From: Eledone cirrhosa
Lineage: Eukaryota
Reading direction: 5' to 3'
DNA: 64,000 bases
Assembly: GCA_964016885.1 (NCBI GenBank)
Contig: OZ024741.1
Coordinates: forward strand, 101,990,001 to 102,054,000
The notes under the pieces: generated by a model
Told to the model about the DNA's origin: nothing
Seen by the model: only the letters and a program-made list of their open reading frames with translations
Databases searched by the model: none
Position numbers and translations under genes: made by a program
Shown here: in pieces, positions 36,096 to 61,897 of the stretch
Position numbering within the stretch: position 1 is the first letter of the stretch
Layout: the number at the start of each line of letters is the position of its first letter

Positions 36096-36163
36096 GCCTC
36101 GGTAGCGCAGTAGGCAGCGCGTCAGTCTCATAAAGGTCGTGAGTTCGATCCTCACCTGGGGCA
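36096..36163 (+). pseudogene. tRNA-Met(CAT) pseudogene with a 27-nt deletion (intron + 3' anticodon stem)
   Basis: CTCATA-AAGGTCG; ATCTG is missing. Confidence 0.85.
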
Positions 36164-37332
36164 CAATTTTTTCATTTTTATTATTCAATAATATTATCTT
36201 TCACAATTTACTGAACCAGATTTGAGAGCCTACATGTTACAACTAACCTGGTGATTTTAACAACTTCGGGCCTAAATTTCACAATTGGGCTTATAACCAG
36301 ATGTCCTTGTCATTTTAACAGCTTTGGTGTCTTAATCTTACAATTGGGCTTATAATCAGATCTACTGGTTATTTTAATAACTTTGGCTTCCAAAATCTCA
36401 CAATTGGCTTGAGTCTATTACCAGCTTTGGAGGCCTACACTTCACAGTTGTCTTGGGCCTATAATCAGTTTGGGGACCGCAGATTTCGCAACTGATGACG
36501 CCATGCTTTGCAGCAAAGAGTTACGGCCCTTTATGGGCTTACATTTAGCAACTGACGTGGGACTATCACCAACTTTGGGAAACGACATTTCACACTTCAT
36601 CTGGGTCTAAGTTCTGGTTTGCAAAGTCTTGTTTGTAAGTGAAGGAAAATAATATCTGTGAACTCCGTTCAAAATATTCTGTGGTATTTAGTTATGTTAA
36701 AGATTAACGTATATTAATTATAATTAGATGAAGTACTTCCGAATGTAAGGTTATTTCTCTTGGACCATAATGAATTCTAATTTAGGTATAAGGGCAGCAA
36801 TTTGTGGGGAAGTAAAAAACTATAATATCGATCTCAGTACTTTATTAGTATTTTATTCTAACGAACCAGGAACGATGGAAGGCAAGGTTGGAATCGACAG
36901 CATTTGATCTCTTCTATGTACAATAATAAAAACAAAAACACTGTAATAAATATGTTGTATTAACGGTCCCCATATATATTTTATATTTAGATGAAATGCG
37001 CGCAATAAAGATCTATAATCGTGCCTAGTACACACAATAAGTGAATGTAGAGACTTCAGAATTTATGGTTATTTCCCTTGCACAAGAATGTAAATACATC
37101 CAGTTTCGTAATTGACAGGAAATTAAAGTAAGTGATTAACAAATTATTAAGATAGGTAATGTAGGAAAACCTACTTCATTATATTTTTAAAGTATGTACA
37201 GTATAAGGAACTATGTGCAAAAACAGCTCTAATCAAAAGTGAATCAGATATACACATAGTAGATTGTCTGACAATATCGACATTATAAAGTGATAGTGTT
37301 GATATAGTTAAATAGAAAAAGTGCGTCTAGTT

Positions 37333-37427
37333 GCCTCGGTAGCGCAGTAGGCAGCGCGTCAGTCTCATAATCAAAAGTAGTACTTGGAGGAATCTGAAGG
37401 TCGTGAGTTCGATCCTCACCTGGGGCA
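37333..37427 (+). tRNA. tRNA-Met-CAT: Elongator tRNA-Met(CAT), intact, 22-nt intron
   Basis: GCCTCGGTAGCGCAGTAGGCAGCGCGTCAGTCTCATA[ATCAAAAGTAGTACTTGGAGGA]ATCTGAAGGTCGTGAGTTCGATCCTCACCTGGGGCA, followed by a T-run. Confidence 0.93.
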
Positions 37428-38040
37428 CATTACTTTTCTTTCATTTTTATTATTTTTTTTAGTTCAATAATATTATCCTTTGAAGGGCATTTAAAGCTTA
37501 TTTATGAAGCGAGAAGTAGATATTTTCTATATTCAGAAATGATCAACCATACATTATGTGTTCTATTAAACAAAATATACAATGAATTGATTGGCATTTC
37601 GTAATATGGAGTATATTTTACATTTACCAGGTTTAGCGCCTTCATTTCACAACGCACTATTGACCGCCTATATTTCATAAACAAGCTGTGCTTATCACCT
37701 GCCCTGAGACCTATGTTCCAGAACTGACAAAGGAGTATAACCAGCTTTAGCTGTCTACATTTTTGAGCAGGGTGTAATCTCTGGTTAGTTGTGAAATATA
37801 GGCATTAGAGCCGCTACTGGACCCAGGTTGTTTATGTTATGTAGTCACTCAAAACAGGCAATAGGCTTAGATCAGTTGTAAAATGTAGTTATCTAAAGCT
37901 GATAATAGGACAAGGTTAGTTGTGTAGTCTGGGGGCTCAAATTGGTAATATAAACATGTTCGCATTTTAATATAGGCCACGAATCAGGCAAACACGTGCA
38001 ACTTTAAAGATCCATAGCAATTGGGAAATGTAAGCACAAA

Positions 38041-38390
38041 AAATATTTTATAATCTCTGGTAAGTTGTGAAATGTGTGCTACTAAAACTGGTTGCGCTCC
38101 CTGGTTAGTTGTGAAATATAGGCCTCAAAAATATTTTATAATCTCTGGTAAGTTGTGAAATGTGTGCTACTAAAACTGGTTGCGCTCCCTGGTTAGTTGT
38201 GAAATATAGGCCTCAAAAATATTTTATAATCTCTGGTAAGTTGTGAAATGTGTGCTACTAAAACTGGTTGCGCTCCCTGGTTAGTTGTGAAATATAGGCC
38301 TCAAAAATATTTTATAATCTCTGGTAAGTTGTGAAATGTGTGCCACTAAAACTGGTTGCGCTCCCTGGTTAGTTGTGAAATGTAGTCCTC
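38041..38390. repeat. Young 88-bp tandem repeat x4 (dimer of the 44-bp satellite, inverted orientation)
   Basis: Near-identical copies start at 38041, 38129, 38217 and 38305. Confidence 0.92.
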
Positions 38391-38652
38391 AGAGATGGCT
38401 ATTGGCACAGATAGTTTATGAAATATAGGGCCTCAAAGCAGGCAATATGCCCACGTCACTTGTGAAAAGAACGCCATAAAACTTGCTAAATTTTCTAACT
38501 GCCAAATAATCCAGGGCACATTTTGTTTAATAGAACACATATTGTATGATTGATCATTTCTGAATCGACGAGATATCTACTCCTAGATTCACGAAGTACG
38601 GTTTATAATGCATTCAAAGGATAATATAATTGAACCAAAAAATAAAATAAAT

Positions 38653-38746
38653 TTCCCCGGTCAGAATCGAAATCACGACCTTCAGATTCCTGCATGCAGT
38701 ATTTTAGATTACGAGGCCGACGCGATGCCTACTGCGCTACTGAGGT
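38653..38746 (-). pseudogene. Degenerate tRNA-Met copy with intron
   Basis: Many substitutions; the anticodon reads CGT; B box damaged. Confidence 0.8.
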
Positions 38747-40107
38747 AACTATCGGTGTTTTTTTATAGGTAACTACATCAACACTAACACTAAAATATTT
38801 CTAATTGCTATGTTGTCAACCCATGTACGATGTCTGTCTAACACTGTATTGTGTATATCTTATTTTAATTAGAGATGTTTTTACTTACTTCATTATAATT
38901 TATCTAATTGTTAATTACAAGTTAATTACAAGGCTGGTTTTAGTTTCAGTCTTATGCAGGTGGGGGGGGGGGGGGGGGTAACCTTGATTTCTGTAGTCTA
39001 TAATCTCTAATTGTGCATATTATGCATGGTTGCATTTTTTTTAAATATTCACAATGCCGTGTCAAATATCGTACATAGACTAACAATATAGCAAATAGTA
39101 AGAGATAGTGTTGATGTAGTTAAATAAAAGCAGTGAAGAATATTTCCTAGATTCAGAAATGATCAACCATACATTATGTATTCTATTAAACAAATGTACA
39201 CTGAATTAATTGGCAGTTAGAAATGTGGTGTCTATTTCACATTTACCGGGTTTAGGGTCTTCATTTCACAACGGACCTGGGCATATTGCACGCTTTAGGT
39301 GTCTACATGTCGTAAACAACCCGGGCCTATTATCTTACATTCACAACTGACGATAAAGTAAATCCATCTTACAACTGACATGGAATTACCAGTCTTTGTG
39401 CTTCATTTCACAATTATGCTGGTTGGTCCTTTAAGATATTTTCATGCGGGGAGGAGAGTGAGGCCACACAATTTTCCCGTCTTTTATCAGCTTTGGAAGC
39501 CTTTATTAATAGGTGGACTTGAGCCTATTACCAGTTTGGGGTCCCTAAACTTCACAACTAATCTTGTCATATTAATTACCAGCTTTACATGCCTACATTC
39601 CAATTCATCTGGTGTCATTACTAATTTGGGGCCTACATTTCACACCTAACCTGTGACTATTACCATCTTTGTGGTCGTCCTATATTTCACATCTTACCTG
39701 GACCAATTTACAGATTTCTTCACAGAGGGTGCTGCATTCTCCATCCCAAATGTTCTTATATCGTGATTTACAAGGTCATGATTGTAAGTGCGTTGAAGTA
39801 GAAATGAAGTAGGGGGCAAAAAGAATAAAAATAATAATAATAAAAATATCATGCACAATATGCACAATTACAGATCGTAGACTATATAAGATTACCTTCC
39901 TTGAATAAGATTGAAAATAAAACCAGTTTTGCAATAAGCATGTAATTAACAATAAAATTAAGTATATGGAAGAAGGTAAAAATTATCTCTAATTAAAATA
40001 TAAATAGAAATACGCAATACAGTGCTACATGTTGTACATAAGATGACAACAAAGCAATTAGAAAGTGTTAGTGTTGATGTAGTTAAATATAAAAAGGGCC
40101 GCCAGTT

Positions 40108-40202
40108 ACCTCGGTAGCGCAGTAGGCAGCGCGTCAGTCTCATAATCGTTAGTAATACTTGGAGGAATCTGAAGATCGTGAGTTCGATCCTAACCTGGGG
40201 CA
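40108..40202 (+). pseudogene. tRNA-Met(CAT) copy with intron, 3 exon substitutions
   Basis: G1A, variable-loop G>A, T-stem C>A. Confidence 0.8.
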
Positions 40203-40550
40203 CTAATTTTTTTCATATTTCTTTAGCTCAATTACTGGGATCTATTTTTTACATTTGAAATGGATTTTAAAACATTTTAAAGTGTGGATGGGTGCTACAC
40301 AATTTGCTCGCCATTTTACCAGCTTTGATAAATTACTGATTTTGGTCTTCTATTTCACAGCTAACCTGGGACTATTAGGAGTTCTGAGTGCCTACATTGC
40401 CCTGGTCCTTTAAAACATTTTTTGCGGGGGAAACGGTGGGGCTACGCAATTTGACTGCCCTTTCACCAGCTTTTGTGGCCTATATTAAAAACCTGACTTG
40501 GGCTTATTATCAGTTTAGGGTCCTTAGACTTCACAACTGACCTGGTCCTA

Positions 40551-40908
40551 CACCATGCTTTACAGCATAGAGTTATGGTCCTTTACGTCCTGAGTTCAAA
40601 TCCCGCCGAGGTTAACTTTGTCTTTCATCCTTACGGGGGCGATAAAATAAAGTACCAGTAATGTACTGAGTAATTGCTGGCCTTGTGCCAAAAGTAGAAA
40701 CAATTATTATCTATAGATGCCTACATTTCACATCTGATATGTGTCTATTATTAGCCATGCTTTCCAGCATAGTTACGTCCCTTTACGATCTGAGTTCAAA
40801 TCCCGCCGAGGTTGACTTTGCCTTTCATCCTTACGGGGTCGATAAAATAAAGTACCAGTAATGCACTGGATAATTGCTGGCCTTGTGCCTAAAGTAGAAA
40901 CAATTATT
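40551..40908 (+). mobile_element. Two 5'-truncated Nin-core SINEs (40551-40710, 40756-40908)
   Basis: B box, Nin core and aacaattatta tail. Confidence 0.85.
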
Positions 40909-41508
40909 AGTTGGGCGCCATGCTTTGACGCATATAGTTACGGCCCTTGAAAGAAGGTTGGATACACTAATGAACTCGTCTGGTCTCACTTACTGATCCA
41001 GCTGGCGTAACATGGGAAGAAGGAGAAGGTAGTAATTTTTGGGGGAGAGGAAAATCAATGAAATCGATCCTAGTACTTTAACTACGACCGAAGAACGATG
41101 AAAGTCAGTAGGATTATATCTTTCCCTAGCGCATTAATGAAACCATAAAATTGATATGTTGTATTATCAGTATCCATACGTAATTTATACATAGGTGAAG
41201 TGAGTGTAGATAAATATAATTATAATTGTTTCTACTTTTTGGCACAAGGCCAGCAAAATACCCAGTGCATTACTGGTACTTTATTTTATCGACCCCATAA
41301 GGATGAAAATAATTATAATGGAGCCAAATATTCACATTAGAAATCGTGGACTACGAAATTTAAAGTTACCTCCCTTGAACAAGATAACAAATACAACCAG
41401 TTTTGTAATTAACAGGTAGTTAACAATTATACTGACAATTTCACTGACAACATAATAATTAGAAAGCAATAGTGTCGATATAGTTAAATATAAGTGTAAC
41501 TAATGGTT

Positions 41509-41603
41509 GCCTCGGTAGCGCAGTAGGCAGCGCGTCAGTCTCATAATCAAAAGTAATATTTGGAGGAATCTGAAGGTCGTGAGTTCGATCCTCACCTGGG
41601 ACA
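41509..41603 (+). tRNA. tRNA-Met-CAT: tRNA-Met(CAT) with intron, one acceptor-stem mismatch
   Basis: The 3' end is CCTGGGACA (G71A); otherwise consensus. Confidence 0.7.
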
Positions 41604-41726
41604 CATTTTTTTTTCATTTTTAGTTCAACAATATTATCTTTTGAAAGAATTAGAAAGCTTACTTCATGAGGCGAGGAGTAGCTATTTCCTAGATTCAGAA
41701 GTAATCGACCATATAATACATGTATT

Positions 41727-41914
41727 GTGGATTGGCAGTATCGGTAGAGGGTCGGACGCCATGCTTTCCAGCATTGATTTACGGCCCTTGCCATTCTGAG
41801 TTCAAATCCCGCCGAGGTTAACTTTGCCTTTCATCCTTACGGGGTCGATAAAATAAAGTACCAGTAATACACTGGTTAATTGCTAGCCTTGTGCCAAAAG
41901 TAGAAACAATTATT
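41727..41914 (+). mobile_element. Full-length Nin-core SINE
   Basis: gtggattggcagtatcggtagag...gagttcaaatccc...gtagaaacaattatta. Confidence 0.88.
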
Positions 41915-42907
41915 AACCAAAGTGTACACTGTAATAATTGATAGTCAGAAATAGAGTCTAATTTCGTATTCTCCCTGAGCCTATTTCAATTCAGCTCTGG
42001 GTTTTACATTTCACAATTGTCAGGATTCCATTTCACAATGGCTTTATGCCTATTGCTTGCTGTGAGGGCCTACATTTTACAGCTGACCAGGGATTATAAC
42101 CAGCTTTAGGGACCTGCATTTCAAAACTGATATGCAATTATAACAAGTTAATTGGCTGCTTACAATTCGCAATTAACTTGGAGGTTTATTCAAAATCTGA
42201 CATGGACCTATTTCCCTAGACCTCGCAACTAACCTATTCGTATTCTCATCTTTAGATGGCTACATTTCACAACTAACCTGGAGCCGAGGTTGACTTTGCC
42301 TTTCATCCTTACGGGGTCGATAAAATAAAGCACCAGTAATGCACTGGGTAATTGCTGGCCTTGTGCCTAACGTAGAAACAATTAATTATAATTAAATGAT
42401 TTATGAATCTCCCTTGTACTATAATAATTTTTAATTTAGGCACATAGCTAGTCATTTTATGGAGAGAATAAAATCTATTAAATCGATGCTAGTACTTTAT
42501 TGGTACTTTATTTTATTGACCCAAGAACGTTGAAAAGGAAAGTCTAATCAGCAGGATTACATCTCTTCTTTACACAACAATAAAATCATGAAATTAATGT
42601 TAAATAATTTATACTTCGATGAGGTGAGTGCATATTAAAAAAGAAAACAACTATAATCGTGCCAAATACACACAATTAAATATCGTAGACTACGGAATTT
42701 AAGGCTACCTCCCTGGAACATGATTGTTTCATAATAAACTTGTAATTAAGAATTTGATAATGTATAATGATGCAGGTAAAAATTATCTATAATTAAAAGA
42801 AAATGATATATACACAATGCAATGTAATACACCGAACATGCGTTGATAACATATCAATTAGAAAGTGTTAGTGTTGATGTAGTTACATAGAAGGAATGTC
42901 ACCAGTT

Positions 42908-42983
42908 ACGCGCGTCTGTCTCATAATCTAAAGTAGTACTTGGAGGAATCTGAAGGTCGTGAGTTCGATCCTCACCTGGGGCA
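42908..42983 (+). pseudogene. tRNA-Met copy lacking the D arm
   Basis: agttac-gcgcgtc deletion; intron and 3' exon intact. Confidence 0.8.
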
Positions 42984-43253
42984 TGATTATATTTCATTTT
43001 TTTTTAGTTCAATTTAAAGTTTACATCATGAAGCGAGGAGTAGATATTTCCTAGATTCAGAAATGATCGACAAAAACAATATGAGTGCTCTAAAAAAAAC
43101 AGGAGGTATAATGAATTAATTGGCAGGTAGATATGTGGTGCATTTCAGATTTCTAATTAAAATTAGATATACACAATGCAGTTAGATATTGTACATGGAC
43201 TGACAATATAGTAATTAGAAAATAGGGGTTCAATATAAGGAGATCCGACAGTT

Positions 43254-43321
43254 GCCTCGGTAGCGCAGTAGACAGCGCGTCAGTCTCATAATCAGAAATA
43301 ATATTTGGAGGAATCTGAAGG
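43254..43321 (+). pseudogene. 3'-truncated tRNA-Met copy
   Basis: Ends at tgaagg, fused to spacer gcgatcaaatagctc. Confidence 0.8.
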
Positions 43322-43437
43322 GCGATCAAATAGCTCTAATTAAAATAAAATTATATATATACAATGCAGTGTTAGACAACGTAGCAATTATAATGTATTA
43401 GTGTTGATGTAGTTAAATAAAAGGTGTGCTGTCAGTT

Positions 43438-43532
43438 GCCTCGGTAGCGCAGTAGGCAGCGCGTCAGTCTCATAATCATTAGTAATACGTGGAGGAATCT
43501 GAAGGTCGTGAGTTCGATCCTCACCTGGGGCA
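43438..43532 (+). tRNA. tRNA-Met-CAT: Elongator tRNA-Met(CAT), intact, 22-nt intron
   Basis: Consensus exons; intron ATCATTAGTAATACGTGGAGGA; long T terminator. Confidence 0.93.
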
Positions 43533-44847
43533 CTACATTTTTTTTTTTTTTTTTTTTAGTTTAATTATATTATTATCTGAACCAATATTATACTCTGAAG
43601 GGCAGTTAAAGCACACTTCACAAGCGAGGGTTAGATATTTTATTTCCTAGATTCAGAAATGATCGACCAAACAATATGACTCATATTAAAAAAGATTGTA
43701 GACTGAATTAATTGGCAGTTAGAAATATGGTGTATTTCATATTTACCAGGGTTAGGATTCTAATTTCACAAAGGACCTAGGAATATTGCCCGCTTTCAGG
43801 GCCTACATTTCATAAACAACCTGGGCCTATACCAGCTCTGAGGCATACGTTTCACATATGACCAGGGTTTATAACCAGCTTTAGGGGTCTACATTTCACA
43901 CCTGACATTCTGTTATAATTAGTTTAGGTTGCCATTTTACCAGTTTTGTAGGTCTATATTTAAAGGCTGACATGGGCCTATCAGCAGTTTAACGTATATT
44001 AATTATAATTAGACGAATCTACGTACTATAATAATGTTTAATCTAGGTACATGTCTAGTCATGTCTGGAGAGAGTATAATGAATTAAATCGATCCCAGTA
44101 CTTTATTGGCATTTTATTTTATCGGCCCAAGAATAATGAAAATCAAAGTTGATATCTGCAAGATTAGATCTCCACTTTACACCATAATAAAACCATGAAA
44201 TTAATATGTCGTATTAATAGTCGCCTTATATAATCTATATGTAGATGAAGTGGATGAGATAAATAAAGAAGCAAAAAATCTATAATCATCTGCAGTATAT
44301 ACAATTCAGCTCATCAGCATCGCTGCGAGTGTGCTGGCTTGCCAAAAAAATCTTTCGAGCGGTTTCCCAGTACGCGTGACGTTGCTATCTTTTGCTCTGG
44401 TTTTGGCTCCGTTGTTCACCCCTTCCTTTACATTTCTTTAATATTGTAACATTAAAACACTATATCTTTCTGAAAGAATCGCGAGCTATTTATAATGTTG
44501 CCTAAGCATTTGTAATGTTATTTATGTATATATTTAAAACATATTTGTTATGTTATTCTACTGTAAATTTATTTATATGCTCTGTTTATATTTTCATTCT
44601 GAAAGAATTGCAAACGATTTGTAATGTATATACGATTAGAAGTCGTAGACTAGGGAATTTAAGTTACCTCCCTTGAACAAGATTAAAAATCCAACCAATT
44701 TTGTAAATAACATGTAATTAAGAATGAGATAAAATATAATAAAAATGTAAATATAGCCCTAATTAAAATAAAATTAGATACAAACAATATGGGCTGACAA
44801 CATAGGAATTAGAAAATAGTTGTTCAATATAAGAAATTTCGTCAGTT

Positions 44848-44942
44848 GCCTCGGTAGCGCAGTAGGCCGCGAGTCAGTCTCATAATCGGTAGTAATACTT
44901 GGAGGAATCTGAAGATCGTGAGTTCGATCCTCACCTGGGGCA
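44848..44942 (+). pseudogene. tRNA-Met(CAT) copy with intron, 3 exon substitutions
   Basis: aggccgcgag and gaagatc variants. Confidence 0.75.
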
Positions 44943-45492
44943 CATTTTTTTTAGTTCAACAATATTATCCACTTAACAAATTATAAAGCTTACTTCATGA
45001 AGCGAAGAGTAGATATTTCCTACATTTAGAAATGATCAACCATACAATATGTGTTCTATTAAACAAATGTACACTGAAATAATTGGCAGTGAGAAATCTG
45101 GTGTAAACTTCATATTTTGCAGGTTTAAGACCTTCTTTTCACAGCTAACGTGGGTATATTGCTCGTTTTGAGGGTCTATATCTCGAACACAAACTTGACC
45201 TATTACGTTCTCTGTGGCCAACATTTCACAACTGATAAGGTATTATAACCAGTTTTATGGGTATACATTTTACAACTGACCAGGGAGTATTTTGAGGCCT
45301 ACATTTCACATTTACTAAGCAGGTTATAATCACTGGTGAAATGTAGGCCCCAAACGCTGGTTACACATTCTGGTTATTTGTAATATGTAGAACTCAGGAC
45401 TGGTAAGTGGCACAGATTGTTTAAATAATGTAGGTCCTCATAGCAATAAATGTACACGCACACACATATACGTGCGCGCGCACACGCACACA

Positions 45493-45599
<107 letters not shown>

Positions 45600-45814
45600 C
45601 TATCATGCGCAATAAGCATAATTAGAAATTATAATAAGATTGAAATTTGTAATGAACTTCTAATTAACAATTACATAAATTATAATGAAGTAGGTAACAA
45701 ATATCTCTAATTAAAATAAGATATACACAATACGGTGTTAGACACCGTATTGACAATATAGCAATTAGAAAGTGGTAGTGTTGATGTAGTTAAATATAAG
45801 ACGCATTACCAGTT

Positions 45815-45909
45815 GCCTCGGTAGCGCAGTAGGCAGCGCGTCAGTCTCATGATCAAAAGTAATTCTTGGAGGAATCTGAAGGTCGTGAGTTCGATCCTCA
45901 CCTGCGGCA
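45815..45909 (+). pseudogene. tRNA-Met(CAT) copy with intron, A37G and G69C
   Basis: CTCATG, CCTGCGGCA. Confidence 0.7.
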
Positions 45910-46578
45910 CATTTATTTCTTTTTTTTAGTTCAACAATATTACATTTAGAAGCTTACTTCATGAAGCGAGGAGTAGCTATTTCGTAGATTCAGAAGTAAT
46001 CAACTATATAATATATGTATTATTAATCAAAGTGTACACTGTATTAACTGATAGTCAGAAATAGTAATAGGGTCTAATTTCGTATTCTGCCTGAACCTAT
46101 TCCAATTCAGCTCTGGGTTTGAGACTTCACAGATGACTTGGTTGTAATACTAGCTTTGGGAGCCTATATTTCACAACAGATGTGGGCCTGGTACCATTTT
46201 TGGCGGCGTACATCATACATTTGTCCTGAGCCTATTACTTCTTTGTGGGATTACATTTCAAAGCTATCTGGGTTTATTAGCAGTTTCGGAAACCTGCATT
46301 TCACAAATGGATTGGTCTTATCATCAGCTTTATGTGCCTATATTTCAAAACACACCTAGCCCTATTACCATTGTTAGGGTCTACATTTCACAACTAACCT
46401 GGAGCTAGTACCAGCTTTGGGCAAATTGACAAATTTCTTTGAATTCGGCACAGTTTCTTACATCTCACCTGTTCTTATATCGTGATGTACACTGTCATGA
46501 TTGTAAGTGCGGTGAAATAGCAATATCTATAAATGACGTTGTGGTGTTTAGTTAATCCCCTTTATGATAAGATATGTG

Positions 46579-46770
46579 GGTGGAATGGCAGTATTGGTAG
46601 AAGGTCGGACGCCATGCTTTGCAGCAAAGAGTTACGTCCCTTTATGGTCTGAGTTCAAATCCCGCCGAGGTTAACTTTGCCTTTCATCCTTACGGGGTCG
46701 ATAAAATAAAGCACCAGTAACTCACTGGGATAATTGCTGGTCTTGTGCCAAATGTAGAAACAATTAATTA
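46579..46770 (+). mobile_element. Full-length Nin-core SINE (a partial duplicate lies at 42283-42388)
   Basis: A/B boxes, core and tail. Confidence 0.85.
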
Positions 46771-47287: not shown

Positions 47288-47382
47288 ACCTTGGTAGTGC
47301 AGTAGGCAGCGTGTCAGTCTCATAATCGAATGTAATACTTGGAAGAATCTGAAGGTCGTGAGTTCGATCCTCACCTGGGGCA
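47288..47382 (+). pseudogene. Degenerate tRNA-Met copy with intron
   Basis: G1A and several CpG transitions in the 5' exon. Confidence 0.8.
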
Positions 47383-47673: not shown

Positions 47674-47741
47674 GCCTCGGTAGCGCAGTAGACAGCGCGT
47701 CAGTCTCATAATCAGAAATAATATTTGGAGGAATCTGAAGG
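47674..47741 (+). pseudogene. 3'-truncated tRNA-Met copy (duplicate of 43254)
   Basis: Identical junction. Confidence 0.8.
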
Positions 47742-47857
47742 GCGATCAAATAGCTCTAATTAAAATAAAATTATATATATACAATGCAGTGTTAGACAAC
47801 GTAGCAATTATAATGTATTAGTGTTGATGTAGTTAAATAAAAGGTGTGCTGTCAGTT

Positions 47858-47952
47858 GCCTCGGTAGCGCAGAAGGCAGCGCGTCAGTCTCATAATCATT
47901 AGTAATACTTGGAGGAATCTGAAGGTCGTGAGTTCGATCCTCACCTGGGGCA
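47858..47952 (+). tRNA. tRNA-Met-CAT: tRNA-Met(CAT) with intron, one D-loop substitution
   Basis: GCAGAAGG instead of GCAGTAGG; stems intact. Confidence 0.82.
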
Positions 47953-48675: not shown

Positions 48676-48770
48676 GCCTCGGTAGCGCAGTAGGCAGCGC
48701 GTCAGTCTCATAATCATTAGTAACAATTGGAGGAATCTGAAGGTCGTGAGTTCGATCCTCACCTGGGGCA
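48676..48770 (+). tRNA. tRNA-Met-CAT: Elongator tRNA-Met(CAT), intact, 22-nt intron
   Basis: Consensus exons; intron ATCATTAGTAACAATTGGAGGA. Confidence 0.93.
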
Positions 48771-50146: not shown

Positions 50147-50241
50147 GGCCCCATGTGAGGATCGAACTCACGACCTTCAGATTCCTCTAAGTATTACTTC
50201 TGTTTATGAGACTGACGCGCTACCTACTGCGTCACCGAAGC
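50147..50241 (-). pseudogene. Degenerate inverted tRNA-Met copy (paralog of 54902)
   Basis: Shares GGTGACG and intron AACAGAAG with 54902. Confidence 0.8.
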
Positions 50242-50800: not shown

Positions 50801-50895
50801 GTCTCGGTAGCGCAGTAGACAGCGCGTCAGTCTCATAATCGTTAGTAATACTTGGAGGAATCTGAAGGTCGTGAGTCAGATACTCACCTAGGGCA
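50801..50895 (+). pseudogene. Degenerate tRNA-Met copy, B box broken
   Basis: gagtcagatac. Confidence 0.8.
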
Positions 50896-50920: not shown

Positions 50921-51488
50921 GGGTCGGACGCCATGCTTTGACGTATAGAGTTACGGCCCTTGCCATTCTGAGTTCAAATCCCGCCGAGGTTAACTTTGCC
51001 TTTCATCCTTAGGGGGTCGATAAAATAAAGTACCACTGGGTAATTGCTGGCCTTGTGCCTAACGTAGAAACAATTATTATCTGAGCCAATGGTGAATTGG
51101 CAGTATCGGTAGAGGGTCGGACGCCATGCTTTCTAGCATAGTTATGTCCCTTTATGATCTGAGTTCAAATCCCGCCGAGGTTAACTTTGCCTTTCATCCT
51201 TACGGGGTCGATAAAATAAAGTACCAGTAATGTACTGGTTAATTGCTGGCCTTGTGTCAAAAAGTAGAAACAATTATTATCTGAGCCAATTAGTGCGGTG
51301 GATTGGCAGTATCGGTAGAGGGTCTGACGCTATGCTTTGCAGCATAGAGTTACGGCCCTTTATGATCTGAGTTCAAATCCCGCCGAGGTTAACTTTGCCT
51401 TTCATCCTTACGGGGTCGATAAAATAAAGTACCAGTAATACACTGGGATAATTGCTGGCCTTGTACCAAAAGTAGAAACAATTATTAT
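50921..51488 (+). mobile_element. Three head-to-tail Nin-core SINEs (50921-51080, 51091-51280, 51298-51488)
   Basis: Each is followed by attattatctgagccaat. Confidence 0.9.
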
Positions 51489-51935
51489 CTGAGCCAATGA
51501 TATTATACTCTGAAGGGCAGTTAAAGCATACTTCACTAAGCACGAAGTAGATATTTCCTAGATTCAGAAATGATCAACCATACATTATGTGTTCTATTAA
51601 ACAAAATGTACACTAAATTGATTGGTATTTAGTAATGTGGAGTATATTTCACATTTACCAGTTTTAGCGCCTTCATTTCACAACATACTATTGACTGCTT
51701 TGTGGGCCAACATTTTATAAACAATCTGGGCTTATTACCTGCTCTGAGGCTACATTCCACAACTGACAAAGGAGTATAACAGGAGGTATACTGAATTAAT
51801 TGGCAGGTAGATATGTGGTGTATTTCAGATTTCTAATTAGAATTAAATACACACAATGCATTGTTAGATATTGTACATGGGCTGTCAACATAGGAATTAG
51901 AAAATAGTTGTTCAATATAAGAAATTTCTGCAGTC

Positions 51936-52030
51936 GCCTCGGTAGCGCAGTAGGCAGCGCGCCAGTCTCATAATCGTTCGTAATACTTGGAAGAATCTGA
52001 AGGTTGTGAGTTCGATCCTCACCTGGGGCA
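51936..52030 (+). pseudogene. tRNA-Met(CAT) copy with intron, 2 exon substitutions, anticodon-intron G lost
   Basis: T27C, C48T; the intron ends GGAAGA. Confidence 0.72.
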
Positions 52031-52576
52031 CTATTTTTCTTTTCTTTTTTTAGTTTGATTATATTATTATCTGAGCCAATAATATTATACTCTGAAGGGC
52101 ATTTATAAACAATATTTTATAAACAATCTGGGCTTATTACCTGCTCCGAGGCTACATTCTACAACTGACAAAGGAATATAACCAGATTTAGGTGTCTACA
52201 TTTCAGAGCTGACGTGGGCTTGTTACTAATCTGGGGTCACAAAAGCTCACAATTAACCTGGTCCTATTACCCGCTTTAGATACCTACATTTCACAACTCA
52301 TCTGGGCTTATTAATATTTTGGGGTCTACATTTCACAATTAACCTCTAACTATTACCACCTTTTTGACTTGCATTTCACATCTGACCAAAGCAAATATAG
52401 AAATTTCTTTACAGAGGGCGCTGTTCTTATATCGTGGATTACCAGGTCTTAGTTTCAAAGGCGATGAAATAGCTCTAATTAAAGCAAAATCATATATACA
52501 CAATATAGTGTTAGACAATATAGCAATTAGAATGTGTTAGTGTTGATGTAGTTAAATAAAAGCAGTACTGTTAGTT

Positions 52577-52671
52577 TCCTCGGTAGCGCAGTAGACAGCG
52601 CGTCAGTATCATAATTGAATGTTATACTTGGAGGAATCTGAAGGTCGTGAGTTCGATCCTCAGCTGGGGCA
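52577..52671 (+). pseudogene. Degenerate tRNA-Met copy
   Basis: G1T, D-loop GG>GA, C32A, cagctgg. Confidence 0.8.
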
Positions 52672-53551
52672 CGATTTTTTCTAATTTTATTTCAATTTTT
52701 TAGTTCAATTATATTATCCACTGAAGGCATTTAAAGTTTTCTTCATGAACCGAGGAGTAGATATTTCGTAGATTCAGAAATGATCGACCAAACAATATGT
52801 GTCATATTAAAAAAGAGTGTACACTGAATTAATTGGCTGGTAGAAATATGGTGTATTTCATATTTACTAGGATTAGGATACTAATTTTACAAAGGACCTA
52901 GAGGTATTGCACGTTTTCAGGGCCTACATTTCATAAACAACCTGGGCCTATAACTAGCTCTGGGGCATACGTTTCACAACTGACCAGGGTTTATAACCAG
53001 CTTTAGGGGCCTACATTTCACATCTGACTTTCGGTTATAATTAGTTTTGGTTGCCATTTTGCCAGTTTTGGGGACCTATATTTAAAGGCTGACATGGGCT
53101 TATCAGCAGTATGGGTTCCTTAGACCTTATAAATAAGCTGCTACTACTACCAGCTTTAGCTGCCTACACTTCATGACTGATCTGGCCCTATAACTAGTTT
53201 TACTAGTTTGATCCTACATTTCACAACTAACCTCTGACAATTACCAGCTTTGGAGTCCTACACGTCAAATCATACCTGGGCCAATTTACAGATTCCTTTA
53301 CAGACGGCTATGCATTTTGCACCTCAACTGTCCTAATATAGTGACGTACACTGTCATGATTGTAAGTGCGATAAAATAGCAATGTCTCTAAATTATGTTC
53401 AAAATATTTTGTGGTGTTTAGTTAACTCCCTTTATGGTAACATATGTTATGTTACAGATTAACGTATAGTGTCGGACAATAAAATTAGATACAAACAACG
53501 CAGTGTTAGATATTGTACAGGGGCTGACAACATAGGAATCAGAAAATAGTT

Positions 53552-53645
53552 GCTCGGTAGCGCAGTAGGCCGCGCGTCAGTCTCATAATCGGAGGTAATA
53601 CTTGGAGGAATCTGGAGGTCGTGAGTTCGATCCTCACCTGGGGCA
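53552..53645 (+). pseudogene. tRNA-Met copy with deleted proximal 5' flank
   Basis: aatagttg-ctcggtag junction; two further substitutions. Confidence 0.78.
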
Positions 53646-54901
53646 CATTTCTTTCGTTTTTAGTTCAACAATATTACATTTTGAAGGAATTAGAAAGCTA
53701 CTTCATGAAACGAGGAGGAGATATTTCCTAGATTCAGAAGTAATCAACTATATATGTATTATTAATCAAAGTGTACACTGTATTAATTGATAGTCAGAAA
53801 TAGGGTCTAATTTAGTATTCTATCTGAGCCTATTCCAATTCAGCTCTGGGTGTTACGCTTCACAAATGACTTGGTTGTAATATTATCTTTGTGGGCCTAT
53901 ATTTCACAACAGATGTGGGCCTGGTACCATTTTGGGGGCGTACATCATGCATTTGTCCTGGGCTTATTACTTCTTTGTGGGTCTACATTTCAAAAGTGAT
54001 CTACGTTCATTAGCAATTTTGGAAACTTGTATTTCACAAATGGACTGGTCTTATCATTAGCTTTGGATTTTTGTTTGCACTCACCTAGCCCTTTTACCAT
54101 TTTTGGGGTCTACATTTCACAAATGTCCTCGGCCTTTACCATTTTGGGGGCCTACAATTCACAAATGAGGTGAGACTATTAGTAGCATTGGTATCCACAT
54201 CTCACCTCTCACCTGGGCGTATCAGCTGGTTTGCACAGTCTTGATTGTAAGTTCGATGAAATCGTTCAAAATATTTTCCCCAGTACTATAGTTTATGTTA
54301 CATTAAAGATTCACTTATAGAAATAATAAAACGAAATAATTCCGAATGTAAGTTTATCTCCCTTGCATCAGAATGTAATCTTAAACGTTACAATAACTAT
54401 GTATTCACGGTTTGACACATAATATATAATTTTATGAAGTGAATGCAAATAACAATTTATATTCTCAATTAGAAATCGCAGAGAATGAAGTCTCCACGAC
54501 CTCAATTATGGATTTTTATTTGCACCTTAATTACAAAGTGGTAAACGTTAATACATGTTTCCCGCAAAAATGTTTTAAAGGTCCAGGGCAATTGTGAAAT
54601 GTAGGCTCACAGAACTGGTAATAGTCTCAGGTTAGTTGTGAAATGTAAAACCCAAACTAGTAATAGGCCCACGTCACCTATTTAATGTAAGCATCCCAAA
54701 CCAGTAATATGACTGGAAAATTTTATATCACCCTCACCAACCCCTCCAACCTAAGAATTTTTAAAAGGTCAGGTCAAATGTTGGCTCCAATAACTGGTTA
54801 GAATTCCATATCATATACAGGACTATAAAGCTGGTTATAAGACCTGGTCAGGTCGAAAATAAAGAATAATATTATTGAAGTAAAAATATATGGAATATTA
54901 G

Positions 54902-54996
54902 TGCCCCAGGTGAGGATCGAACTCACGACCTTCAGATTCCTCTAAGTATTACTTCTGTTTATGAGACTGACGCGCTACCTACTGCGTCACCGAGGC
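54902..54996 (-). pseudogene. Inverted tRNA-Met(CAT) copy with intron and altered A box
   Basis: GCCTCGGTGACGCAGTAGGTAGCG...; 3' exon intact. Confidence 0.75.
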
Positions 54997-55443
54997 AACT
55001 GACGGGTTATTTTATATTCAACTATGAGGGCCTAAATTCAAAATCTGACCTGGGCCTATTACCAGGCTGGTGTCACTAAACATCGCAACTAACCTTATCG
55101 TATTTTCATCTTTAGATGCCTACATTTAACAACTAACCTGGAGCTAGTACCAGCTTTGGGTTCCTACATTTCACACCTCACCTGACCAAATTGACATATT
55201 TCTTTGAAGCCGACAGTTTTTTATATGTCACCTATTCTTATACCATGATGTACACGGTTATTATTGTAAGTGCGGTGAAATAGCAAAATCTCTAAATGTG
55301 TATATCTTATTAAAATAAGATATACACAATGCAGTGTAAGACACTGTATATGGATTGAGCAATTAGAAAGTGATAGTGTTGATGTAGTAACATATAAGAA
55401 ATATCCACAGTGATGTAGTTAAATATAAGTTCAACTCCTAGTT

Positions 55444-55538
55444 GCCTCGGTAGCGCTATAGGCAGCACATCAGTCTAGTAATCGAAAGTAATACTAGGAA
55501 AAATCTGAAAGTCGTGAGGTCGATCCTCACCTGACGCA
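55444..55538 (+). pseudogene. Highly degenerate tRNA-Met copy
   Basis: More than 10 substitutions; anticodon loop altered. Confidence 0.75.
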
Positions 55539-56457
55539 CTATTTCTTCATTTTATTTTATTTTTCAGTCCAAATTTATTATCCTCTGATGGCATTTAAAG
55601 CTTCCTCCATAAAACGTGGAGTTGATTTTTTTTCATAGATTCAGAAATGATCAACCATACATTATGTGTTGTATTAAACAAAATGAACACTGAATTATTT
55701 GGCAGTTAGAAATGTGGAGTCTATTTCACATTTACCAGGTTTAGGGCCTTCATTTCACAACATACTATTTACCACCTTGGGGGACTATATTTCATAAACA
55801 ACCTGGGCTTATTACCTGCTCTGAGGCCTACTTTCCACATCTAACCAAGGAGTATAACCAGATTTAGATGTCTACATTTCAAAACTTACGTAGATCTGTT
55901 ACTAATCTGGGGTCACCTGAGCTCACAATTAAATTGGTCCTATTGCCCGCTTTAGATGCCTACCTTTCACAACTGATCTGGGCTTATTAATATTTTGGGG
56001 CCTACATTTCACAACTAATCTCTGACCACCTGTGTGAATTGCATTTCACATCTCAAGTAAACAAATATAGAAATTTCTTTACAGAATGTTGTACATTTTA
56101 CATCTCACCTGTTCTTACATCGTGGATTACAGGGTCATGGTTATAAAGGCGATGAAATAGCTCTAATTATAATAAGATTATATATACACAGATTTACACA
56201 ATCCTACTACCAGATTTAGATGCTTACACTTCACAACTTATCTGTTTTACTAGTTTTACTAGTTTGGATCGTACATTTCACATCTAACCCCTAACAACTA
56301 CCATCTTTGGAGTCTTACATAGTTAGGTCATGGTTTTAAGGGCGATCAAATAGCTCTAATTAAAATAAAATTATATATACTCAATGCAGTGTTAGACAAC
56401 ATACCAATAAGAATGTATTAGTATTGATGTAGTTAAATAAAAGATGTACTGCCAGTT

Positions 56458-56552
56458 TCTTCAGTAGCGCAGCAGGCAACGCGTCAGTCTCATAATCGTT
56501 AGTAATACTTGGAGGAATCTGAAGGGCGTGAGTTCGATCCTCACCTGGGGCT
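56458..56552 (+). pseudogene. Degenerate tRNA-Met copy
   Basis: Acceptor stem disrupted. Confidence 0.78.
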
Positions 56553-57546
56553 CTTTTCTTTTCATTTATTAGTTCAACAATATTAGCCTTTGAAGGAATT
56601 ATAAAGTTTATTTCGTGAAGCGAGCAGTAGATATTTCGTAGATTCAGAAGTAATCGACCATATAATATATGTTATTAATCAAAATGTACACTGTATTAAC
56701 TGATAGTCAGAAAATAGGGTCTAATTTCGTATACCACTTTGAGGCCCTACATTTCACAACTGACGTGGGACTATTAGTAGCATTGGTATCCACATCTCAC
56801 TTCCCACCTGGGCGTATATCCTCGTTTGCACGGTCTTGATTGTAAGTTCGATGAAATCGCAGTGTCTGTCTATACACTACGTTCAAAAATATTCTTCCCT
56901 GTATCATACTTTAAGTTAAAGATTCACGTATAGAAATAACTAAATGAAATAATTCCGATTGTAAGTTTATCTCCCTTGCATCAGAATGTAATCATAAATG
57001 TTACAATAACTATGAATTAACAATTCCATATATAATATATAATTTTATGAAGTGAGTTGAAATAAAACTCTATATTCTCAATTAGAGATCATCGGGAATG
57101 AAGCCTCCACGATCTCAATTATGTATTTTTATTTGCACTCTATGACTTCATATAAACCTTAATTTCAATGTGGGAAACTTTAATACATATTCCTCGCAAA
57201 AGGTGTTCTAAAGGACCAAGGCACACAGAAATGTAGGCACACAGAACTAGTATTAGTCCCAGGTTAGCTGTGAAATATAAGACCCAAACTAGTAATAGGC
57301 CCATGTCACCTGTTTAATACAGACCTCAAAAGCCAGTAAAATGACGGGAAATTTGTATAGCACCCTCACCCCACCACCAACCTAAGAATCTTTAAAAGGT
57401 CAGGTGAAATGTGAAATGTTGGCTCCAATAACTGGTTAGAATTACATGTCATTTGTGATATATTGGATTATAAAGCTGGTTATAAGACCTGGTCAGTTGG
57501 AAAATAAATAATAATATTATTGAACTAAAAATATATGAAAGATTAG

Positions 57547-57641
57547 TGCCGTAAAGGAGGATCAAACTCACGACCTTCAGATTCCTCCAATTATTACTTC
57601 TGATTATGAGACTTACGCGTAGCCTACTGCGCTGCTGAGGC
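57547..57641 (-). pseudogene. Degenerate inverted tRNA-Met copy
   Basis: Intron present; acceptor stem and B box mutated. Confidence 0.78.
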
Positions 57642-58209
57642 AACTGACGTGTTATCGTATATTTAACTATAAGGGGCTATATTCAAAATCTGACCTGGGC
57701 CTATTACCAGGTTAGAGTCACTAAACATCGTATTTTCATAGTTAGTTGCTTACATTTAACAACTAACTTGGAGCTAGTACCAGCTTTGGCGTCCAACATT
57801 TCACACATCACCTGGTTAAATTGACAAATTTCTTTGAAGTCGACAGTTTTTTTTATATATCACCTGTTCTTATATCGTGATGTACACTCATTATTGTAAG
57901 TGCGGTGAAATAGCAAAATCTCTGAATGACATTCAAAATATTTGTGGTGTTTAGTGGATTCTTTTTATGACAAAATATTTGTGGTGTTTAGTGGATTCTC
58001 TTTATGACAACAATCATGCGCAATATGCATGCACAATTAGAGATTATAATAACATTGAAACTAGCTTGTAATTAACAATTAGATGAATTATAATGAAGTA
58101 GGTAAAAAATATCTCTAATTAAAATAAGATATACACAATGCAGTGCTAGACAACAGCAATTAGAAAGTGATAGTGTTGATGTAGTAACATATAAAGAGCG
58201 TCCACAGTT

Positions 58210-58304
58210 GCCTTGGTAGCGCAGTAGGCAGCGCGTCAGTCTCGTAAACGGAAGTAATACTTGAAGGAATCAGAAGTTCGTCAGTTCAATCCTCACCTGG
58301 GACA
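58210..58304 (+). pseudogene. Degenerate tRNA-Met copy
   Basis: Anticodon CGT; multiple 3'-exon substitutions. Confidence 0.78.
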
Positions 58305-59006
58305 CTAGTTTTTTTAATTTTATTTTTCAGTTCAAATTTATTATCCTCTAATGGCGTTTAAACCTTCCTTCATGAAATGTGAAGTTGGTTTTTTCATAAA
58401 TTGAGAAATGATCAAACATACAATGTGTCAATCACCAAAATGTGCCCTGAATTAATTGGTAGTTAGAAATGCGCAGTCTATTTCATATTTACCAGGTTCA
58501 CAACATAATATTGACCTCTTTAGGGGCCTGTATTTCATAAACAACCTGGGTTTATTACTTGCTCTGAGGCCTACTTTCCACGACTGAACAAGGATTGTAA
58601 CCAGCTCTGAATTCTACATTTCCGAATTTACGTGGGCCTGTTACAAATCTGGGGTCACCTGAGCTCACAATTAACCTGGTCCTATTACCCGCTTTAGATG
58701 CCTACATTTCACAACTCATCTGGGCTTATTAATATTTTGGGGCCTACATTTCACAAATAACCTCTAACTATTAACGCCTTTGTAACTTGGATTTCACATC
58801 TCACCAAAGCAAATATAGAAATTTTGTTACAGAGGGCGCTGCATTTTACATCTCACCTGTTCTCATATCGTAGATTACAAGGTTTCAAGGGCGATGCAAT
58901 AGGTCTAATTAAAATAAAATTATATATACACAATACAGTGTTAGATAACATAGCAATTAGAATGTGTCAGTGTTGATGTAGTTAAATAAAAGATCCGGCG
59001 CTAGTT

Positions 59007-59101
59007 GCCTCGGTAGCGCAGTAGGCAGCGCGCCAGTCTCATAATCAAATGTTATACTGGGAGGAATCTGAAGGTCGTGAGTTCGATCCTCACCTGGGGC
59101 A
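59007..59101 (+). tRNA. tRNA-Met-CAT: tRNA-Met(CAT) with intron, T27C only
   Basis: Intron ATCAAATGTTATACTGGGAGGA; T-run terminator. Confidence 0.78.
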
Positions 59102-59396
59102 CGATTTTTTCTCATTTTATTTCAGTTTTTTAGTTAAATTATATTATCCACTGAAGGTATTTAAAGCTTACATCATGAAGAGTAGATATTTCCTAGATTC
59201 AGAAATGATCGACAAAAACAATATGAGTGCTCTAAAAAAAAACAGGAGGTATACTGGATTAATTGGCAGGTAGATATGTGGTGCATTTCAGATTTCTAAT
59301 TAAAATTAGATATACAAAATGCAGTTAGATATTGTACATGAACTGACAACATAGGAATTAGAAAATAGTTGTTCAATATAAGTCTTTTAGGCAGTT

Positions 59397-59491
59397 TCCT
59401 CGGTAGCGCTGTAGGCGGCGCGCCAGTCTCATAATCGTTAGTAATACTTGGAGGAATCTGAAGGTCGTGAGTTCGACCCTCACCTGGGGCA
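59397..59491 (+). pseudogene. Degenerate tRNA-Met copy
   Basis: G1T, A14T and others. Confidence 0.78.
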
Positions 59492-60943
59492 ATAGATTTT
59501 TTTTCTTTTTTTTTTAGTTTGATTATATTATTATCTGAGCCAATAATATTATACTCTGAAAGGCAGTTAAAGCAAACTTCACGAAGCGAGAAGTAGATAT
59601 TTCCTAGATTCAGAAATGATCAACCATACATTATGTGTTCTATTAAACAAAATCTACACTGAATTGATTGGTATTTTGTAATGTGGAGTATATTTCACAT
59701 TTACCAGGTTTAGTGCTTTCATTCCACAACATACTATTGACTGCTTTGTGGGTCAATATTTTATAAACAACCTCGGCTTATTACGTGTCCGAGGCTACAT
59801 TCCACAACTGACAAAGGAGTATAACCAGATTTAGGTGTCCACATTTCTGAGCTGACGTGGGCCTGTTACTAATCTGGGGTCACCTGGGCACACAATGAAC
59901 CTGGTCTTATTAACCGCTTTATATGCCTACATTTCACAATTGATCTGGGCTTATTTTGGGGCCTACATTTCACAAATAACCTCTAACTATTACCACCTTT
60001 GTAACTTGGATTTCACATCTCATCAAAGCAAATATAGAAATTTCGTTACAGAGGACGCTGCATTTTACATCTCACCTGTTCTTATATCGTGGATTACCAG
60101 GTCATGGTTTTAAGGGCGATGAAATAGCTCTAATTAAAATGACATTATATATACACAATACAGTGTTAGACAACATAGCAATTAGAATATGTTAGTGTTA
60201 GGGACTGACATTTAATATTTTATTTGCCGGTTAATATCCATTTCACAATTCTCCTTGGAGGAATGCCATGACCACTAGATTTATTTTTGGGTTGACGGTG
60301 TGCTAATTTTCACATCTCATGACATTTCGTAGTCTACATTTCATAATCGATTCGGGCCTATTTCTAGGTGTTGGGGGTTAAGTTTTCCATCTCACCTGGG
60401 ACGATTATCAATTTCGGTAGCCTACATTTTACACTTCACCAGGTCATATTAGCTGATTTCTTTACGGAGTGGGTGTTGCTACTAAACAACGTATTTTCAT
60501 CTTTAGATGCCTACATTTAACAACTAACCTGGAGCTAGTACCAGCTTTGGCGTCCAACATTTCACACCTCACCTGGCCAAATTGACATATTTCTTTGAAG
60601 CTGACACAGTTTTTTATATCTCACCTATTCTTATACCATGATGTGCACGGTTATTATTGTAAGTGCGGTGAAATAGCAAAATCTCTAAACGAGGTTCAAA
60701 ATATTTGTGGTGTTTAGTGGATTCTCTTTATGATAACAATCATGCGCAATATGCACAGAATTAGAGGTTATAATAACATTGTAATTAACAATTAGATAAA
60801 TTATAATGAAGTAGGTAAAAAATATCTCTATAATTAAAATAAGATATACACAATGCAGTATTAGACACTGCATATGGGTTGACAACATAGCAATTAAAAT
60901 GTATTAGTGTTGATGTAGTAACATATAAAGAACATCCGAAGTT

Positions 60944-61036
60944 GCCTCGGTAGCGCAGTAGGCAGCTTCGTTCTCATAATCAAAAGTAGTACTTAGAGGA
61001 ATCTGAAGGTCAGGCGTTCGATACTCGCCTTGGGCA
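60944..61036 (+). pseudogene. Degenerate tRNA-Met copy
   Basis: Small deletion in the anticodon stem; T arm mutated. Confidence 0.78.
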
Positions 61037-61184
61037 CATTTTATCATATCTATTTTTTGGTTCAATAATATTACCCACTGAAGGAATTAGGAAACTTACT
61101 TAATGAATCGAGGATTAGATATTTCGTAGATTCAGACATGATTGACCATTTAATATACGTATTATTAGCCAAAGTAAAGAATCT

Positions 61185-61429
61185 CAGTAAAGAATCGCCG
61201 GACAGATTTTACGGGCAAAACCAACTGACAGGCTACCAAGGAGTAGACCCCGAGCAAATTGATTGGATAACATTCATGAGCTTGACTGGTCACGCCTGGG
61301 GATCCAACTGGTTTAGTTGGAGACGGTTGCTTCCGATCAGACTCGCTGGATGGAGTGTTTGGGGACTCTGCCCCCACGACCTTCTCAAGAGTAAGTGGGC
61401 ATAGAAGAAGAAGAAGAAGAAGAAGAAGA
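61185..61429 (+). mobile_element. RTE-like LINE 3' end with (GAA)n tail inserted in the tRNA array
   Basis: Matches 17030-17240 (reverse complement) and 31100-31290. Confidence 0.82.
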
Positions 61430-61802
61430 CTATTAGTGCCCTTTGTTCAAACACCAACTTTGCTACTGTTCACATTTGGTCAGGCCGTTAATACCAGTGT
61501 AGGTGACTAATATTTCACGACTTCAACATTTCACATCTCACAGGTTTGGGAGTCTATATTTGAAGTGAGTGCAAATAAAATCCATAATTAGAGATCGTAA
61601 AGACTTCAAAATTTATAGTTAACGCAAGAATGAAACTACAACTAGTTTTGCAAGTAATTAAAGTAGATAAGCTACGAAAATATATCTAATTGAAAGTTAA
61701 TGAGAGACACAATGAAGTCTTAGACCTTGTACATTGGCTGACAATATAACAATCAACAAGAGATAGTGATGATATAGTTTAATATAAAAAGAACTGTCAG
61801 TT

Positions 61803-61897
61803 GCCTCGGTAGCGCAGTAGGCAGCGCGTCAGTCTCATAATCAGAAGAAATACTTGGAGGAATCTGAAGGTCGTGAGTTCGATCCTCACATAGGGCA
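61803..61897 (+). pseudogene. tRNA-Met(CAT) copy with intron, two acceptor-stem mismatches
   Basis: 3' end CACATAGGGCA. Confidence 0.7.

Follow-up and report, generated by a model that had tools for sequence, protein, structure and literature searches.

The window analysed here is a 64,000-nt stretch of the Eledone cirrhosa genome (contig OZ024741.1, referred to below as C2). It contains part of an array of elongator tRNA-Met(CAT) genes that carry a short intron directly after A37, starting with the sequence AUC. The intron is real and probably obligatory, mechanically of a known type, and lies in a family that has been thought intron-free in animals. Taken as a whole, we consider it fairly likely that the intron is canonical, likely ancient and removed by TSEN/RtcB, with the AUC kept for a SNORD97-type methylation guide.

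The intron-bearing tRNA-Met family

When the copy located at 37333 was compared with the window using BLAST, 30 rows were returned. After merging one copy that had been split and dropping a 26-nt chance match (1956-1981) there are 28 tRNA-Met(CAT) copies in 36096..61897 (24 in plus and 4 in minus orientation), the same count as given in a preliminary description of this DNA. The Rfam tRNA model places 20 of the 28 above its gathering score. The genes have a cloverleaf structure with a CAU anticodon, a G1-C72 pair and TTCG in the T-loop. G1-C72 and the T-loop, from which elongator identity had originally been deduced, agree with the elongator tRNA-Met alignment of Vitali & Kiss (Fig. S4). A 22-nt insert follows A37 (the 37/38 position) in every copy that retains this region, again as first described.

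The 23 ungapped full-length copies were scored for their stems, boxes A and B, anticodon and anticodon–intron (A–I) pair, leaving out five copies with deletions or truncations. Four pass all the checks (37333, 43438, 48676 and 47858), and the remaining 19 fail at least one. The exons of the first three are mutually identical, in keeping with their description as perfect. In the 37333 gene the GAG at −5 to −3 of the intron (37370..37391) can pair with C32-U33-C34, with C32:G−3 as the A–I pair. The copy at 36096 is ruled out as a precise intron loss, since 5 exon bases are gone along with the intron. The features are as follows.

36096..61897, both strands: degenerate left part of the elongator tRNA-Met(CAT) array, 28 copies
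36096..36163, plus: pseudogene copy, 27-nt deletion (intron and 5 exon bases) (BLAST)
37333..37369, plus: 5′ exon (positions 1-37) of an intact gene; anticodon CAT at 37366-37368
37370..37391, plus: 22-nt intron, ATC start (= mature 38-40)
37392..37427, plus: 3′ exon (positions 38-73), then a T run
38652..38746, minus: degenerate copy, anticodon CGT, 6 broken pairs (structure checks)
40108..40202, plus: copy, 2 broken pairs (structure checks)
41509..41603, plus: near-intact copy, 1 broken pair (structure checks)
42910..42983, plus: 5′-deleted copy with intron (BLAST)
43254..43324, plus: 3′-truncated copy with intron (BLAST)
43438..43532, plus: intact gene, 22-nt intron (Rfam and structure checks)
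44848..44942, plus: copy, 1 broken pair (structure checks)
45815..45909, plus: copy, 1 broken pair, G at 37 (structure checks)
47288..47382, plus: degenerate copy (structure checks)
47674..47744, plus: 3′-truncated copy, duplicate of 43254 (BLAST)
47858..47952, plus: gene with all structure checks passed, one D-loop change (structure checks)
48676..48770, plus: intact gene, 22-nt intron (Rfam and structure checks)
50147..50241, minus: degenerate copy (structure checks)
50801..50895, plus: degenerate copy, boxes A and B damaged (structure checks)
51936..52030, plus: copy, 1 broken pair (structure checks)
52577..52671, plus: degenerate copy (structure checks)
53551..53645, plus: degenerate copy (structure checks)
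54902..54996, minus: copy, 1 broken pair (structure checks)
55444..55538, plus: degenerate copy, anticodon AGT (structure checks)
56458..56552, plus: degenerate copy (structure checks)
57547..57641, minus: degenerate copy (structure checks)
58210..58304, plus: degenerate copy, anticodon CGT (structure checks)
59007..59101, plus: near-intact copy, 1 broken pair (structure checks)
59397..59491, plus: degenerate copy (structure checks)
60944..61036, plus: degenerate copy, 2-nt deletion (BLAST)
61803..61897, plus: copy, 2 broken pairs (structure checks)

The 26 kb noted earlier is only the first part of the array, its decaying edge. The whole array extends over ~119 kb, from 36096 to ~155,236 in window numbering (C2:102,026,096-102,145,236), and no tRNA-Met copy was found in the 10 kb preceding the window. 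At its core, a 2.4-kb unit of two genes recurs with 98–100% identity, with decaying copies on the flanks. In alternate genes of this unit, T66 creates two neighbouring G-U pairs in the acceptor stem; genes of this type are present as 14 identical copies plus variants. The tandem arrangement was considered as a special feature and rejected. Large tandem arrays are also formed by Tyr-GTA and Ile-TAT genes (C1 ~49.29-49.40 Mb; C2 ~142.03-142.36 Mb), so the Met array is ordinary for this genome.

Searching the genome with exon 2 gave 84 matches, all covered by the stretches that were inspected; counts from the searches are lower bounds. The stretches around these matches, on the eight contigs C2, C3, C4, C5, C6, C7, C8 and C20, contain 104 two-exon copies, 88 of them on C2. 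An intron of 21–22 nt is present in 102, the other two being degenerate with a 5-nt remnant, and none of the 104 is intronless. The intron is thus present throughout the isodecoder family, as had been suggested from the window. All structure checks are passed by 57 copies, and 32 copies have identical exons yet differ in their flanks and introns. Dispersed intact genes are found on C5, C7, C8 and C20.

Compared between five contigs, the introns of intact genes agree in only 10–17 of 21–22 columns, and throughout they begin with ATC and have GAG at −5 to −3. G−3 is present in 25 of the 26 distinct introns of intact genes in this genome. C at +3 occurs in 25/26 introns of intact copies compared with 19/24 of degenerate copies, a comparison that is not a clean test of selection because the degenerate copies diverge everywhere.

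Two further arrangements were observed. On C3 a 1.4-kb unit joins each of five divergent intron-bearing Met-like genes to a Cys-GCA gene, and on C8 the dispersed Met genes have five Arg-TCT genes beside them that lack an intron, in contrast to most human Arg-TCT genes. ARAGORN mislabels the intron-bearing Met copies as Ile, Tyr, Trp, Thr, Leu, Ser or Lys, a warning that standard tRNA finders can mislabel such genes.

Probable splicing and the wider occurrence of the intron

The intron is very probably spliced out, a view strongly indicated by the A–I pair, the presence of TSEN-domain loci and a spliced, CCA-tailed fragment in the genome. It has the properties of a TSEN-type intron, i.e. the 37/38 position, an A–I pair between pyrimidine 32 and purine −3, and a short anticodon–intron helix. 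The minimum free energy folds of the precursors are inconsistent between copies. The TSEN catalytic domain PF01974 is found above cut-off at two loci, on C15 and C21, and removal by TSEN/RtcB would be likely.

A 25-mer spanning the spliced junction, with one mismatch allowed, gave no match in the genome. An exact 17-mer junction search and a 27-mer search allowing up to three mismatches each found one place, the same 48-nt fragment on C18 (1,726,825-872, minus strand). This corresponds to mature tRNA-Met positions 29–76 including the CCA, with 2/48 mismatches, at 58 and 73, and has T67 as in the intron-bearing genes. A dispersed repeat tail, seen twice more in 448 kb of sampled genome DNA, is joined to it. 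The fragment is likely a retrocopy of the mature tRNA and would serve as a genomic record of splicing; its altered base at 58 is what reverse transcriptase leaves behind when it passes m1A58. It also likely postdates the intron, because a divergence of 2/48 is far below that of the introns between contigs. A 7-nt target-site duplication around the fragment is too short to trust. Retroposed mature tRNAs fused to tails of long or short interspersed nuclear elements are likewise 5′-truncated, spliced, CCA-ended and repeat-joined; the C18 fragment differs from them in being single copy.

The preliminary description would have been undermined by abundant intronless genes with identical exons elsewhere, combined with a lack of Pol III occupancy or splicing of these copies; no intronless gene appeared in the exon-2 or junction searches of the genome. 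With no intronless gene, and the CCA-tailed fragment as the only junction, the supply of elongator tRNA-Met likely needs splicing, as originally proposed; the two TSEN-domain loci are consistent with this. If true, every internal methionine in octopods would depend on tRNA splicing. On the 22-nt intron circles (tricRNAs) that splicing could yield, the available text of PMC4536317 states that very short tRNA introns escape libraries.

Metagenome contigs were scanned for animal-type Met exons separated by 5–35 nt, covering 51 of 64 parts. The scan yielded 132 loci and 138 matches (some counted double from overlapping loci) in ~64 assemblies as distinguished by contig-name prefix; the pattern left out intronless genes, so these numbers give no intron-bearing fraction. 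Intron length in animal-type genes is 13–24 nt. Locus L118, with a 17-nt Met intron, encodes a mitochondrial carrier that is 91% identical to that of Euroglyphus maynei and has close Dermatophagoides relatives, pointing to a house-dust mite as host. Locus L106, with a 13-nt intron, encodes an F5/8 domain; a relative 94% identical to it groups with a protein of Orbicella faveolata, pointing to a stony coral. Pfam matched none of 105 open reading frames (ORFs) from the other metagenome loci, and 3/10 in a separate set. Prokaryote genome assemblies contain seven carry-over Met matches, one with an intron and six without. An identical Met intron occurs in a contig of a SUP05-cluster bacterial assembly (L211) and a metagenome contig (L101), and we read L211 as DNA of an animal host that ended up in the genome record of a prokaryote.

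The Met intron is reportedly absent in human and Caenorhabditis elegans. Judged by these loci, it spans Cnidaria, Mollusca and Chelicerata, yet is not universal, and a single old origin with later losses is probable. The intron would then survive widely in invertebrates, and would have been missed because model animals lost it.

Two other kinds of intron-bearing gene were observed in the same material. A Lys-CTT-like gene (called Thr by ARAGORN) with a 28-nt intron at 37/38 is found at L085:1114-1216 (minus) and L113:145-247 (plus); its host also has the Met intron, and this is possibly a further, unlisted intron family. Gly-GCC genes with an 18-nt intron lie within dense mixed tRNA clusters (L065:87-177 and L073:13-101), in a clade that also has Met introns starting with AUG.

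The start of the intron and a candidate guide

Conservation was counted over 97 distinct metagenome introns of 13–35 nt with both exons complete. The consensus is A at +1 in 95, T at +2 in 95 and C at +3 in 87, with +4 mixed, and G at −3 in 95. The AUC start (87/97) is identical to mature bases 38–40, and conservation ends at +3; the chance of an ATC start from composition is 0.019. Identity with the start of the 3′ exon extends over exactly 3 nt in 68 introns, 2 nt in 9 and 0–1 nt in 3. It exceeds 3 nt in 17, all of them 13–14-nt coral-type introns or members of that exon group, and reaches 5–7 nt in 11 (coral-type, up to 7 nt). The two introns without an initial A are in loci with non-animal-type exons, one located beside an amino-acid permease gene. 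As controls in the E. cirrhosa genome, 0/8 Tyr and 0/14 Ile introns sampled copy their 3′ exon start. The available part of PMC10275265 describes tRNA introns as lacking conserved terminal motifs.

Human SNORD97 and SCARNA97 guide the 2′-O-methylation of C34 (Cm34) in elongator tRNA-Met, and a candidate is reported in some invertebrates and plants (PMC6601510, in the text available). The E. cirrhosa genome was searched using a 15-letter pattern comprising box D and an antisense element placing C34 fifth from it. One candidate (C18:42,599,695-848) has a C-like box with one deviation, a D box and a 7-bp terminal stem. It lies in the sense orientation in an intron of SOSS-B1, between two SOSS-B1-like exons, and has an identical second copy within a 1,828-bp tandem duplication on C18. 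An atlas search with the SOSS-B-like exon gave only OB-fold leads below 0.9. The candidate (also L202:1369-1522) has a long internal UG-rich hairpin, which recalls the G-U wobble stem of Cajal-body C/D RNAs and may be just a microsatellite.

This candidate is proposed to work like SNORD97/SCARNA97, with putative homology. It is predicted to form 12 bp with the mature tRNA and 10 bp with the precursor, where C34 is the fifth base from the D box, a match that is not independent because the search pattern was built to that rule. The last three base pairs of the precursor duplex run through the intron AUC, and the predicted duplex has a mean of −13.4 kcal/mol with real intron starts compared with −9.0 ± 1.3 kcal/mol with shuffled ones. 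C/D ribonucleoproteins (RNPs) engage no more than 10 bp, and pairing beyond that length is inhibitory (available text of PMC8053127 and PMC7229835). The conservation of the intron thus stops, at +3, at the point where a 10-bp duplex ends.

We regard this guide-based explanation of the AUC as somewhat likely. The AUC would keep a 10-bp duplex with the predicted guide on the precursor, and C34 would be methylated before splicing. Because AUC equals mature 38–40, a single guide would match the precursor as well as the spliced tRNA. Such a double fit would make loss of the intron cheap, as in humans and C. elegans, since the same guide would serve the spliced and unspliced forms without change. 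The joint proposal, in which an intron present in the cnidarian–bilaterian ancestor forms a fifth metazoan family and carries an AUC exon mimic that serves precursor methylation and enabled repeated loss, has in our view an even chance of being correct.

A number of observations weigh against these proposals. The 97 introns are not independent of each other, their source organisms being related, and hosts were assigned for only two of the metagenome loci, L106 and L118. One clade (8/97 introns) starts with AUG, leaving 9 bp with the guide. Trichoplax Met genes carry no intron mark in the available part of PMC2655684. The guide pattern gave 19 matches compared with 35 for the control, i.e. chance level, and the candidate was singled out among the 19 only by its box C, terminal stem and intron position. 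An Rfam scan of the candidate, run at E up to 1, gave no snoRNA match. The human tRNA-Met that receives Cm34 has no intron (PMC6601510, in part). The genome may be incomplete, and expression, splicing, Cm34 and the guide are all predictions from genomic sequence. A search of sequencing runs listed none of RNA from this species; the six RNA entries it gave (one of them only guessed to be RNA) contained 4–7% of the words searched for, too few to count as evidence, and runs of two other organisms contained 34% and 29%. The better pairing of the candidate with the spliced tRNA (12 compared with 10 bp) makes methylation after splicing possible. Lastly, a fixed start is not unique to Met, as all 14 distinct Ile-TAT introns sampled begin with GACA.

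The last two of these points, together with the variation of predicted precursor folds among copies, favour an explanation in which the intron is real and spliced, the AUC is kept for another reason, for example precursor folding, 5′ splice-site geometry or a stand-alone modification enzyme, and Cm34 is made after splicing. Conservation nevertheless stops at +3, the end of the 10-bp duplex, and a mature-like stem would need U+4 and G+5, present in only 21 and 22 of the 97 introns. Ile-TAT and Lys-CTT tRNAs are both t6A37 tRNAs and their introns have no consistent A start, so t6A fails to explain the A at +1. We consider this explanation unlikely. The metagenome Ile introns have CAGT in common at +3 to +6, and the conserved start of the Ile-TAT introns is possibly an enzyme-recognition motif.

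It is also unlikely that the intron arose repeatedly through local tandem duplications in which the first bases of the 3′ exon were copied, the AUC being a functionless relic or the result of gene conversion. Coral-type introns matching the exon over as many as 7 nt would suit such an origin, as would the internal 7–8-nt copy of the 3′ exon start in C8-type introns and the patchy presence across animals. A relic would decay evenly, however, whereas intron lengths and middles are fully diverged with the first three bases fixed in coral, mite and octopod.

The view first proposed, that the intron was gained only in this mollusc lineage and then spread through the family, would account for its presence in all copies of this genome and its absence from human and C. 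elegans. It is already contradicted by the same position and end motifs in the 132 metagenome loci from ~64 assemblies, including those of a stony coral and a Dermatophagoides-type mite, unless the coral and mite contigs are chimeric, and is very improbable. The preliminary description had recognized that this gain would fall if the intron were widespread and catalogued in molluscs; it is widespread among animals, and is not described in the papers searched. That the copies are tRNA-derived repeats or pseudogenes, with functional intronless genes missing from the assembly, would fit the damage to 19 of 23 scored window copies and the lower-bound counts, and is most improbable given that 57/104 copies pass all checks, that 32 keep identical exons despite differing flanks and introns, that intact genes are dispersed on C5, C7, C8 and C20, and that the spliced C18 fragment shares T67 with the intron-bearing genes.

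Other features of the window and comparison with known systems

Elsewhere in the window there is a single degenerate 5S rRNA copy (31626-31748, minus; Rfam 60.5 bits). A reverse-transcriptase ORF (468 aa) with an adjacent 222-aa ORF (10188-12263, minus) is presumably Penelope-like; ten high-identity (62–74%) relatives of the window retroelement protein were looked up, and all are Octopus proteins. Two ORFs at 20098-21063 (minus) may resemble an ISXO2/IS1595-type transposase.

No report of an animal tRNA-Met intron was found in the literature searched, that is in papers and not in GtRNAdb or RefSeq annotations. In the text available, PMC12168002 places tM(CAU) introns in plants and fungi, PMC13578239 describes the Met intron of plants and fungi and offers ‘lost in animals’ as one reading, and PMC10275265, PMC4090602 and PMC4536317 contain no animal Met intron. 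The alignment in Vitali & Kiss Fig. S4 gives Arabidopsis without its intron and so cannot show absence of the intron in the animals listed. These introns are probably present already in automatically generated annotations of invertebrate genomes. The present reading would correct the current view, which confines animal tRNA introns to four families and assigns the Met intron to plants and fungi. It would also offer a testable answer on the persistence and loss of tRNA introns, as a sequence constraint that matches the reach of a known methylation guide.

The introns of plant and fungal elongator tRNA-Met(CAU) are found in the same isodecoder, at the same 37/38 position, and are carried family-wide (PMC13578239 and PMC12168002, in part). 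For plants and archaea, a guide duplex that takes in part of the Met intron and shows covarying pairs is reported (PMC10576143, in part). There the guide pairs into a different intron sequence, whereas the start of the animal intron is the mature sequence, needing no guide change. SNORD97/SCARNA97 (D97/D133) are, like the candidate, box C/D RNAs that are intron-encoded and have a D-box antisense element with C34 at the fifth base (PMC6601510 and PMC10576143, in part). The human hosts are EIF4G2 and LARP4, compared with the SOSS-B1 intron for the candidate, which has no Rfam match. The metazoan TSEN/RtcB introns of Tyr-GUA, Ile-UAU, Leu-CAA and Arg-UCU are likewise short and canonically positioned with a G−3 A–I pair, and also form a helix with bases 32–34 (bioRxiv 10.1101/2025.06.17.660180, PMC10275265 and PMC4536317, each in part). 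The Met intron would be a fifth metazoan family, distinguished by an intron 5′ end that repeats the first bases of the 3′ exon and shows conservation between phyla.

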